DNA from: an uncultured Candidatus Rokubacteria bacterium
GTDB lineage: Bacteria > Methylomirabilota > Methylomirabilia > Rokubacteriales > CSP1-6
NCBI GenBank assembly: GCA_963789955.1
Contig: CAWBMV010000006.1
Span: 224,001 to 288,000, forward strand
DNA: 64,000 nucleotides
Direction: 5' to 3'
Under the pieces are notes generated by a model. It did not search any database and was not told the origin of the DNA. It saw nothing but the letters and a program-made list of their open reading frames with translations. A program made the position numbers and the translations under genes. Below, in pieces: positions 28,027 through 30,689 of the stretch. Every line of letters starts with the position of its first letter. The first letter of the stretch is position 1.

Positions 28027-28530
28027 ATGAAGTGCCCGTTTTGCGGTCACACGGAGGATCGGGTTGTCGACTCGCGGGTGGGCCGGGACGGGGAGTTCAT
28101 CCGGCGCCGCCGTGAGTGTCTCAAGTGCCACCGCCGGTACACGACCTACGAATACATCGAGGACGTGCTGCCGCACGTGGTCAAGCGCGACGGGCGCCGC
28201 GAGCCCTTCGACCGCCAGAAGCTTCGCGGCTCCATCTTGAAGTCGTGCGAGAAGCGGTCGGTCGGCGTGCAGGCCGTCGACGACGTCGTCGTCGAGATCG
28301 AGGCCCAGCTGCACGAGCGGGCCGAGAAGGAGATCAGCAGCGAGGAGCTCGGCCGGGTGGTGATGGACCACCTCCAGCGCCTGGACCCGGTCGCCTACGT
28401 GCGGTTCGCGTCGGTCTACCGTCAATTCAAGGACATCGGCCAGTTCGTCGAAGAGGTGAAGGGGCTCCAGCGGGACGACAAGACCAAGCCCGCCCCGGCG
28501 AAGCCACGCCCCCTTGCCAAGACCAAGTGA
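28027..28530 (+). CDS. nrdR: Transcriptional repressor NrdR
   Basis: MKCPFC, V.DSR, IRRRREC..C..RYTTYE, ATP cone, VAYVRFASVY. Confidence 0.98.
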   Translation: MKCPFCGHTEDRVVDSRVGRDGEFIRRRRECLKCHRRYTTYEYIEDVLPHVVKRDGRREPFDRQKLRGSILKSCEKRSVGVQAVDDVVVEIEAQLHERAEKEISSEELGRVVMDHLQRLDPVAYVRFASVYRQFKDIGQFVEEVKGLQRDDKTKPAPAKPRPLAKTK

Positions 28531-28551
28531 CCGGGTCGGTTGAAATAGCGC

Positions 28552-28583
28552 GGCCCTGCCGATGGAGTCGGATCGACAGGGCC
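28552..28583 (-). terminator. Hairpin terminator for the minus-strand micropeptide transcript (possibly bidirectional with nrdR)
   Basis: GGCCCTGCCGAT / ATCGACAGGGCC 12-bp stem; the single mismatch is G-U only on the minus strand; followed by ..TATTTC on the minus strand. Confidence 0.65.
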
Positions 28584-28599
28584 GAGCGCCGCGTGGGCC

Positions 28600-28638
28600 C
28601 TACTTCTTCTTCTTTTTGGTCGCCTTCTTCTTCGCCAA
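28600..28638 (-). CDS. Putative 12-aa lysine-rich micropeptide MAKKKATKKKKK
   Basis: TTG GCG AAG AAG AAG GCG ACC AAA AAG AAG AAG AAG TAG, preceded by AAGGGAGGTGAGGCG (strong SD), with promoter upstream and terminator downstream. Confidence 0.72.
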   Translation of the reverse strand: MAKKKATKKKKK

Positions 28639-28685
28639 CGCCTCACCTCCCTTCGCCGAACGACGAATCGCGTATCTAGCTCGGC

Positions 28686-28714
28686 ATGCTAGTGAGGTGG
28701 CAAAAATCTGTCAA
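28686..28714 (-). promoter_or_regulatory. Sigma70 promoter of the micropeptide gene
   Basis: TTGACA (28714-09)-17 nt-TAGCAT (28691-86). Confidence 0.75.
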
Positions 28715-28721
28715 GACCAAA

Positions 28722-28769
28722 AGTCAATACCTGGGGGTCGTCGAGCATTTCGCGCCCCATATATAGGGT
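28722..28769. promoter_or_regulatory. Two tandem NrdR-box-like sites, 32 bp apart
   Basis: agtCAATACCTGGggg (28722-37, 9/16) and gccCCATATATAGggt (28754-69, 12/16) versus consensus acaCwAtATaTwGtgt; adjacent to nrdR. Confidence 0.55.
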
Positions 28770-28779
28770 CGTCCGTAAA

Positions 28780-28808
28780 TTGACTTCCCGGGGGCCGCGA
28801 TGTAGCGT
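28780..28808 (+). promoter_or_regulatory. Sigma70 promoter of the radical SAM gene
   Basis: TTGACT-17 nt-TAGCGT. Confidence 0.65.
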
Positions 28809-28871: not shown

Positions 28872-30689
28872 ATGAGACGCGCGCTTAAGAAGCTTGTGTT
28901 CGTAGAACCGAAATCGACGCATCTGCACATCTATAGCCGGGTCTGTATTCCGCGCATCGGCTCGGTCCTGCTCGGCACCATCATGCGGGCCAAGGGCTAC
29001 GACGTCCGGGTCTACATCGAGGACATCCAGCCCCCCGACATGCAGGAAGTGCTCTCGGCCGACCTCGTCGCGATCTCGGCCATTACCTCGACGGCGCCGC
29101 AGTCCTACCGGCTGGCGGACCAGGTCCGCGCGGCGGGCGGAATTGCCGTCCTCGGCGGGACCCACGTGAGCTTCCTGCCGGAGGAAGGGCTCGAGCACGC
29201 GGACTTCGTCGTCCGCGGTGAGGGCGAGTTCGCGTTCCAGGAGCTCGTCGACGCCATCCAGGCCGGTCACGGGTTCGAGCAGATCAAGAACCTCTCGCAC
29301 ATCGTGGACGGGAAGGTGGTCAACCACCCGGAGCGCCCGAAGATCCCGAATCTCGACGTGAACCCGATTCCGGACTACAAGCTGATCACGGGCTGGAAGC
29401 CCGGCGGGGTCATCTCGGTCGCGACGTCGCGCGGCTGCCCGTTTTCGTGCACCTTCTGCTCGGTGCCGGGCATGTACGGCCACGCGTTCCGCACCCACTC
29501 GGTCGACCGCGTGCTGCAGGAGCTCGAGAGCCACCGGGGCAACGCCTATACGTTCTTCGCGGATGACATCTTCACGGCGAACAAGAAGCGCGTGAAGGAG
29601 CTCCTGCGCGGGATGATCGAGCGCAACCTCATTCCCGATTGGGGCGCCCAGGTCCGGACAGAAACCGTCGACGATCCCGAGCTCCTCGAGCTCATGCAGG
29701 CGGCGAACTGCTTCAACGTCTACGTCGGCTTCGAGTCCATCAATCCCCGGACGCTCAAGCTCTTCCAGAAGAAGCAGGACCTCGCGAAGATCGAGCGCTC
29801 GATCGAGCGCTTCCACGCCCACAAGATCCGGATCCACGGCATGTTCGTGGTCGGGTCCGATGAGGACGACGTCGAGACGATCGACGCCACCGCCGAGTTC
29901 GCGCTCAAGAACGACATCGACTCGATCCAGTTCATGATCCTGACGCCGATTCCGGGCTCGCCCGACTGGGAGCAGCTCTACGACCGCGGCGACAAGTACG
30001 TGATCAGCAAGAACTGGCAGTTTTACGACGGCCACCACGTCGTGCACCAGCCGCGGCGCATGAGCCCGTACGAGCTGCAGACGGGCGCGCTCGACGCCAT
30101 GGCGAAGTTCTACTCCTGGCGCGGTATCGCGAAGAAGCTCCTGAAGGGCGACCACTACTACGCGGCGATCCGGTACTTCGGCAAGCGAATGGTCCGCGAC
30201 TGGTGGAAGGACGACGAGAACCGCCAGCACGTCGAGTGGCTCAAGGCTCAGCTCTACTCGGATGCGAAGGAGCTCGGGCACCATGCGCTTCAGCGGGTGG
30301 GGCTTCCGGCCATCCTGCTGCAAGATTCCGTGGGACGCCTGCTCCAGCGCTTCCTGGGCGAGCTCGGCGTGACCGTCGTGCCGCTCGCGGAAGCCGCGGC
30401 CGAAGGCGCGGCGCGCGCCAAGGAAACCGTCGACTGCCTGATCACGCCGATCGTGAAGCGCGCGGTGAAGGAGCGCGAGGAGTTCTACGCGAATCTCGCC
30501 ACCGTGAACACCTTGCTGCAGAGCCAGTGGGAGAAGCTGCCACGCGTGAGCTTCCCGCTGCTCGACGGCCAGGGACCGGTGTTCGAGCCGTTCGCCAAGA
30601 TCGGTCTGCTCTTCACCAAGAACCTCGACCGCATCCGCGACGCCTACAAAACCGCCGGGGTCGCTGAAGGTCTCTGGGAAGCTGCGTAG
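28872..30689 (+). CDS. B12-binding-domain radical SAM protein with C-terminal DUF2229-like extension
   Basis: Cobalamin-binding Rossmann segment (DLVAISA.T, VLGGTHVS.LPEE, VVRGEGE), SRGCPFSCTFC, FADDIF, VGFES, TPIPGS. Confidence 0.9.
   Translation: MRRALKKLVFVEPKSTHLHIYSRVCIPRIGSVLLGTIMRAKGYDVRVYIEDIQPPDMQEVLSADLVAISAITSTAPQSYRLADQVRAAGGIAVLGGTHVSFLPEEGLEHADFVVRGEGEFAFQELVDAIQAGHGFEQIKNLSHIVDGKVVNHPERPKIPNLDVNPIPDYKLITGWKPGGVISVATSRGCPFSCTFCSVPGMYGHAFRTHSVDRVLQELESHRGNAYTFFADDIFTANKKRVKELLRGMIERNLIPDWGAQVRTETVDDPELLELMQAANCFNVYVGFESINPRTLKLFQKKQDLAKIERSIERFHAHKIRIHGMFVVGSDEDDVETIDATAEFALKNDIDSIQFMILTPIPGSPDWEQLYDRGDKYVISKNWQFYDGHHVVHQPRRMSPYELQTGALDAMAKFYSWRGIAKKLLKGDHYYAAIRYFGKRMVRDWWKDDENRQHVEWLKAQLYSDAKELGHHALQRVGLPAILLQDSVGRLLQRFLGELGVTVVPLAEAAAEGAARAKETVDCLITPIVKRAVKEREEFYANLATVNTLLQSQWEKLPRVSFPLLDGQGPVFEPFAKIGLLFTKNLDRIRDAYKTAGVAEGLWEAA

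Follow-up and report, generated by a model that had tools for sequence, protein, structure and literature searches.

NrdR is generally treated as a dedicated repressor of ribonucleotide reductase (RNR) genes. According to the literature, the dATP/ATP-loaded tetramer needs two boxes lying 15-16 bp apart and bends the DNA; within each box, the available part of PMC13584703 gives C4 and G13 as critical and A6 and T11 as important, with a tolerant center and a linker between the boxes that is fixed in length only. At the nrdHEF operon of S. pneumoniae, the -35 and -10 elements lie downstream of the boxes (available part of PMC12051234), and in E. coli and P. aeruginosa paired boxes are found only at RNR operons, most other boxes being suspected false positives (2025 preprint 10.1101/2025.03.28.645925, in its available part). 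The locus described here departs from this pattern: in our reading of the sequence, an unannotated oligolysine micro-gene has a real, conserved operator of the NrdR type and would belong to a predicted regulon wider than the established one. Paired operators at this gene as well as at guaB3, imuA and smc would widen the prevailing picture of NrdR. Our literature search returned nothing on NrdR together with such a peptide, guaB or imuA, although regulon databases or supplements may already list some of these genes.

The locus lies in a window of 64,000 nucleotides (positions 224,001 to 288,000 of contig CAWBMV010000006.1, assembly GCA_963789955.1) from an uncultured Candidatus Rokubacteria bacterium, in which the order is rpiB, glyA, nrdR, a GC-rich hairpin, the lysine micropeptide ORF, its promoter, the two boxes, a rightward promoter and a B12-radical SAM gene. 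The product of nrdR (28027-28530, plus strand) combines a zinc ribbon with an ATP cone, passes the TIGR00244 cut-off and has Asp15 and Arg17, a pair present in 50/50 NrdR proteins among the matches listed. The hairpin (28548-28589, no strand assigned) lies where the nrdR and micropeptide genes converge; in relatives its stem is kept and its loops vary, and it is likely a terminator shared by the two genes. Several members of the genus (L005, L007, L012) have repeated palindromic elements between the nrdR stop and this hairpin. The unannotated micropeptide ORF (28600-28638, minus strand) comprises 12 codons with a TTG start, reads MAKKKATKKKKK and includes eight lysines; it follows a strong ribosome site, the Shine-Dalgarno sequence GGAGGTGA (28643-28650, minus strand), and a predicted sigma-70 promoter (28686-28714, minus strand; TTGACA, 17 bp, TAGCAT) that was found by the promoter scan and is conserved in relatives. 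A T-rich gap of 7 bp (28715-28721, minus strand) separates its -35 element from the proximal NrdR-type box, box 1 (28722-28737), which is followed by a linker of 16 bp (28738-28753) and the distal box 2 (28754-28769), all three without assigned strand. Ten base pairs beyond box 2 begins the predicted promoter of the radical SAM gene (28780-28808, plus strand; TTGACT, 17 bp, TAGCGT), which was read from the sequence by eye and is absent from the promoter-scan listing; the B12-binding radical SAM gene itself (28872-30689, plus strand) scores over the cut-off of no curated family. This layout bears out the preliminary description in its main points: the tandem 16-mers start 32 bp apart, they lie between the divergent -35 elements (28714-28709 on the minus strand and 28780-28785 on the plus strand) and 192 bp past the nrdR stop (28530), and no nrd gene adjoins them. 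The sole RNR found in this genome (G000) is nrdJ, which is on another contig and whose promoter is covered by two boxes of its own, 32 bp apart; searches for NrdD and for the class I small subunit had no match in this genome, which is 87% complete.

The ORF behaves as a coding sequence should, with a ribosome site, a start and a stop that are kept, and mostly synonymous changes. Among the 15 copies from the genus, there is a single amino-acid change, seven of the ten variable columns are third codon positions, and start and stop codons interchange. More widely, the pattern of a ribosome site plus peptide recurs in 50 of 61 relatives, against 0 for the backwards-pattern control. Metatranscriptome contigs, which do not give strand, start or level, cover the ORF in 4/21 runs among those listed, and since many of them have differing flanks, they come from several organisms. 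Three of these four runs lack cover of the boxes and one contig bridges them; none of these contigs is counted as evidence. The predicted transcript as a whole folds no better than shuffles (z -0.18), and Rfam returned no match for the hairpin and transcript region.

Taken alone in one genome, the box pair stands only modestly above background, which is at most suggestive. Box 2 keeps all six positions (6/6) that are highly conserved according to the available part of PMC13584703. Box 1 had been called a weak match (9/16) and is indeed weak against the old consensus, but it keeps five of those six positions (C4, A6, A8, T11 and G13, with T9 replaced by C). In base composition, five of its eight core bases are A/T (62.5%), which is at the lower limit of 63% given in the same source, as compared to 87.5% for box 2; A6 and T11 are present in both. 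Scoring with a matrix from the lineage's own nrdJ boxes, a check proposed with the preliminary description, upholds box 2 more than box 1: with the matrix trained on boxes from the nrdJ upstream regions of 24/30 loci, box 2 reaches 12.1 bits, 117 sites in the genome scoring as well, and box 1 reaches 3.6 bits, as do 12,196 sites. As a pair, they rank ninth of the 52 pairs above 10 bits in this genome. Pairs with 11 of the 12 key positions number seven at spacings of 31/32 bp versus 1-12 at every other spacing from 26 to 38; thus, such pairs are no commoner than those at other spacings, and the single-genome spacing test alone is not significant. For the 200-bp stretch before the micropeptide gene, 2000 dinucleotide shuffles give p = 0.0035, and among 66 promoter-like sites of the TTGAC(A/T) type in the genome only the micropeptide promoter has boxes at this geometry (15.7 bits; the next -3.6; mean -21.8). 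The regular expression published in PMC13584703, as given in its available part, has 12 matches in this genome and misses both the micropeptide pair and the nrdJ pair.

The strong evidence for the box pair is its conservation in relatives. Of 61 genomes, 54 have an nrdR match and seven have none, and 53 loci were examined (G056 being left out); the micropeptide gene with its promoter was recognized at 43 of these by pattern and at two more (G045 and G047) by inspection. The preliminary description had asked which gene follows nrdR in relatives: a lysine micropeptide gene does so in 45/53 loci, with the box pair in all 45/45. Footprinting, which it had likewise proposed, shows C4 and G13 kept in both boxes at 42/43 loci scored in register as the linker drifts, in a sample where related genomes are not independent of each other. 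With three values each permitted for gap and for spacing in this register, the start-to-start distance is 32 bp in 36 of the 43 loci, 31 in two, 33 in four and 36 in G011, a genome in which the reading frames of nrdR and of the radical SAM gene are disrupted as well; the gap from the proximal box to the micropeptide -35 element is 7 bp in 39/43 and 6-8 bp in all. Without any per-locus fitting, and with a matrix trained on nrdJ upstream boxes only, 840 geometries were compared, and a gap of 7 with a spacing of 32 came out first in the 27 loci of the family and separately in the 16 loci of other families. When each genus of the family is represented by a single genome, both boxes keep C4, T9 and G13 in 13/13, as against 4-9/13 for the linker columns. 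T11 is found in 41/43 loci for each box, and A6 in 41/43 distal boxes but in a minority of the proximal ones. In the 16 other-family loci, the proximal box has 3/6 key positions and 13-50% A/T, below the limit given in the available part of PMC13584703, and NrdR binding there may thus be weak. One genus (g26) has a GC-centered variant of the box both at the micropeptide and at guaB3, with nrdJ keeping the A/T center, and this parallel change at two genes is what is expected if one protein reads all boxes. Directly upstream of nrdR itself, no pair of >=8 bits was found (0/29 loci). In sum, the site combines a 16-bp linker, C4 and G13 in both boxes, an nrdJ-like motif and an intact NrdR; it departs from the classical position before an RNR operon and overlapping the polymerase site, as the boxes are upstream of both -35 elements with no adjacent nrd gene.

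A reverse search was made by scanning metagenomes for the exact layout of box, 16 bp, box, 7 bp and TTGACA, a scan that admits one gap (7 bp) only and whose matches are rich in near-identical reductase promoters. It returned at least 119 matches, with 106 distinct cores among the matches listed. Of these 106 listed cores, 53 (in 26 clusters at an identity of 70%) precede a gene for RNR or for its activase, nine the lysine micropeptide, seven smc, two veg and two other genes, with no assignable family downstream in 33; in 34 of the 53 listed RNR cases a -10 match is present and there is no further box downstream. This predominance of RNR among the listed matches indicates that canonical NrdR targets, too, have their boxes in this upstream layout. 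The nine listed micropeptide matches all adjoin the same radical SAM gene, and are thus from the same lineage and not independent. The two contigs in which the box geometry precedes veg are L360 and L372.

Several other readings of the site have to be weighed against these patterns. The preliminary description had envisaged control of the micropeptide, of the radical SAM gene, or of both; the first part is supported by conservation, fixed geometry and co-occurrence, whereas the second is not supported as a conserved purpose. An operator whose sole or main target is the B12-radical SAM gene, perhaps encoding a peptide-modifying partner enzyme, would fit the placement of box 2, which ends 10 bp before the -35 element of the enzyme in 14/15 genomes of the genus, and the fact that some B12-radical SAM gene faces the micropeptide in 43/45 loci, 16 boxed loci having in the same place a paralog of 25-28% identity. 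Yet this distance becomes 13-65 bp elsewhere, the 12-residue peptide has no leader region, and no such enzyme occurs in the examined flanks of boxed micropeptide loci of other phyla. The box pair is also absent from all loci with the radical SAM gene but without the micropeptide (0/5, best -4.9 to -8.5 bits, in a count that leaves out G022, G024 and G040, where neither gene is in the examined stretch), and persists at two micropeptide loci (G019 and G031) that lack any radical SAM gene. As the box pair outlasts the loss of the radical SAM gene and is absent at the five loci that have this gene without the micropeptide, the target is most likely the micropeptide; the enzyme as sole or main target is quite unlikely, with its control as a side effect in this genus being possible. 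The replacing paralogs (L108:2204-4354 and 15 other loci) are B12-radical SAM proteins with DUF4070 and the same unassigned C-terminal domain as the radical SAM gene. Three further ideas were rejected: a RiPP precursor with its radical SAM maturase, as each gene occurs without the other and 12 residues hold no leader; antisense feedback on nrdR, as up to 3 kb of other genes lie between the two in many relatives; and attenuation, as no same-direction gene follows the micropeptide. The suggestion that a relocated nrdJ left these boxes behind, or their dismissal as chance matches, might appeal to the weak single-genome statistics and to Streptomyces, in which nrdR and nrdJ form one operon (nrdRJ, in the available part of PMC13584703), but is scarcely credible in the face of key bases kept across an order with a fully diverged linker, of boxes that track the micropeptide promoter even with 1-3 kb of other genes between it and nrdR, and of an nrdJ that has its own pair in 24/30 loci and 10/10 further loci.

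Two remaining alternatives concern the binding protein and the sign of its effect. Palindromes bound by another protein, or promoter-upstream elements merely resembling NrdR boxes, might account for the proximal box being GC-centered in other families and at smc, outside the binding rules of the E. coli and Streptomyces NrdR; this is very improbable given that the conserved columns are those important for NrdR, that the spacing is 31-33 bp, that the motif is absent at other promoters, and that the same pattern retrieves RNR promoters from metagenomes. As for the sign, NrdR could activate the micropeptide promoter via a phase-dependent contact with RNA polymerase, so that the peptide would be made at high dATP. 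A strictly kept gap to the -35 element, such as is seen here, is typical of activators, and the boxes overlap neither the -35 nor the -10 element. RNR promoters, however, at which the same geometry is common among the listed metagenome matches, are the textbook NrdR-repressed targets, and the micropeptide genes of L158 and L163 have boxes that lie over their promoters. The reported activation of topA in P. aeruginosa through one box (available part of PMC4409342) was followed by RNA-seq in which topA did not change (10.1101/2025.03.28.645925, available part). On this evidence, activation is unlikely.

The reading we prefer is that the two boxes probably function as an NrdR operator at the leftward promoter, that of the gene for the 12-residue lysine micropeptide, and most plausibly lower its transcription; repression is favored by the layout common to reductase promoters and by the overlap at L158 and L163. 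In its dATP-loaded form, NrdR would occupy both boxes, shortly before the -35 element and about 43-90 bp ahead of the micropeptide start. From there it would, as seems fairly likely, repress by keeping the polymerase alpha subunit off the T-rich stretch that precedes the -35. The peptide would accordingly be produced when the supply of DNA precursors falls, like the reductase. What it might then do can be put forward only tentatively: it could be a small polycation which, like a histone H1 tail or a polyamine, neutralizes and packs nucleic acid during replication, a nucleoid role suggested by its charge and by the promoter layout in common with smc. The peptide may alternatively have a ribosome-bound role rather than one in chromosome packing. 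If the operator works as proposed, these soil bacteria would likely adjust to their supply of DNA precursors a small peptide for DNA packing in addition to nucleotide synthesis. As NrdR proteins bind boxes of other species in published work, reagents that already exist, together with short oligonucleotides, would serve to test the operator claim.

The same paired arrangement appears at other genes of the lineage. A GuaB3-like IMP dehydrogenase gene has a pair of >=12 bits directly after the -10 element in 30/30 loci (the best 30 of those matched) and in 10/10 of another family; in the present genome, it is at G000:C17:76674-76721 (L250), directly 3' of the -10. An imuA-like gene has such a pair directly before the -35 element in 23/29 loci (from the best 30 of those matched), which in this genome is at G000:C22:141151-141198 (L251). 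A second conserved palindrome, perhaps a LexA site, is seen in the -35/-10 spacer of the imuA-like promoter. A PHP-domain gene, present in only three of the 61 genomes, has a pair of >=12 bits in 3/3 loci (G000:C34:750778-750824, L249); the pair has GTGGA repeats on its flanks, similar to the ones found upstream of nrdJ, and these resemble DnaA boxes. This pair had been considered as the front of a cell-division operon, an idea that was dropped as the next gene is that for the PHP-domain protein. At smc (G000:C30:34218-34264, L455), a strong distal box and a GC-centered proximal box are followed by a T tract, in the same layout as at the micropeptide promoter; C4 and G13 are present in both boxes of the best pair in 27/30 loci (the best 30 of those matched), and only five reach >=12 bits. 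A broad view built on these predicted sites would have NrdR of Rokubacteriales, and partly of other little-studied phyla, as a chromosome-cycle regulator and not a repressor of reductases only, with true paired operators coupling the dATP/ATP ratio to SMC, the ImuA mutagenesis cassette, GuaB3 and the oligolysine peptide, the last, made on the ribosome, acting as an encoded polyamine that packs new DNA; this we offer as speculation, with about one chance in three of proving correct.

The micropeptide family itself extends well beyond this lineage, a scan of GTDB finding at least 116 stretches and the matches listed including Armatimonadetes, Binatia, Goldbacteria, Nitrospirae, Patescibacteria and DPANN archaea. 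At the 47 scorable loci outside Methylomirabilota among the matches listed, a box pair at p <= 0.007 is present in nine, representing about three or four lineages. The other 38/47 are without boxes, and 31/38 of those genomes have nrdR; the presence of nrdR thus does not separate the boxed (7/9) from the unboxed (31/38) loci among the matches listed. Patescibacteria and DPANN (L139, L154, L165, L177, L200 and similar loci) have oligolysine micro-genes of 9-12 residues with strong ribosome sites and without NrdR boxes. A second micropeptide locus of the present genome (G000:C34:854673-854800, L252) has a tandem pair of lysine micro-genes that follow an AbiEi_2-domain gene and run toward a convergent short basic gene resembling rpmB, and relatives have arrays of two or more copies there; none of its 15 copies (0/15) has a box pair within 250 bp. 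Another short lysine-rich ORF (G000:C22:524912, 19 residues) has a ribosome site and no boxes upstream. For a widespread family of lysine peptides of 9-13 residues that gene callers have missed, the box pair would be the first regulatory handle.

A parallel may be struck between the product and the histone-H1-tail-like Lys/Ala proteins (AlgP, Hc2 and the HupB tail) as well as very short basic ribosomal proteins such as eL41 and bS22. The micropeptide resembles this class in being short, Lys/Ala-rich and strongly basic, with no folded domain expected, and differs from it in that the whole product is of 12 residues, a length that precludes homology comparison. The putative operator is closest to those of the RNR operons (E. 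coli nrdAB, nrdEF and nrdDG, and S. coelicolor nrdAB and nrdRJ; available part of PMC13584703), sharing with them two 16-bp partial palindromes, a 16-bp linker of free sequence and C4/G13 in both boxes; box 2 differs from box 1 of E. coli nrdAB (Table 1 of the same source) at 4/16 positions, none of them key. Unlike these operators, it precedes a 12-codon ORF and has both boxes upstream of the -35 element. In having boxes wholly upstream of -35 and -10 it is similar to S. pneumoniae nrdHEF, which for its part has three boxes with spacers of 24 and 26 bp before an RNR operon (available part of PMC12051234). In standing before a non-RNR gene, it can be likened to the NrdR-type sites of P. aeruginosa topA and Shewanella dnaA, both genes of DNA metabolism (PMC4409342 and 10.1101/2025.03.28.645925, in their available parts). 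Those sites are single boxes, and RNA-seq did not confirm the effect on topA, whereas the micropeptide has a conserved pair at helical spacing.
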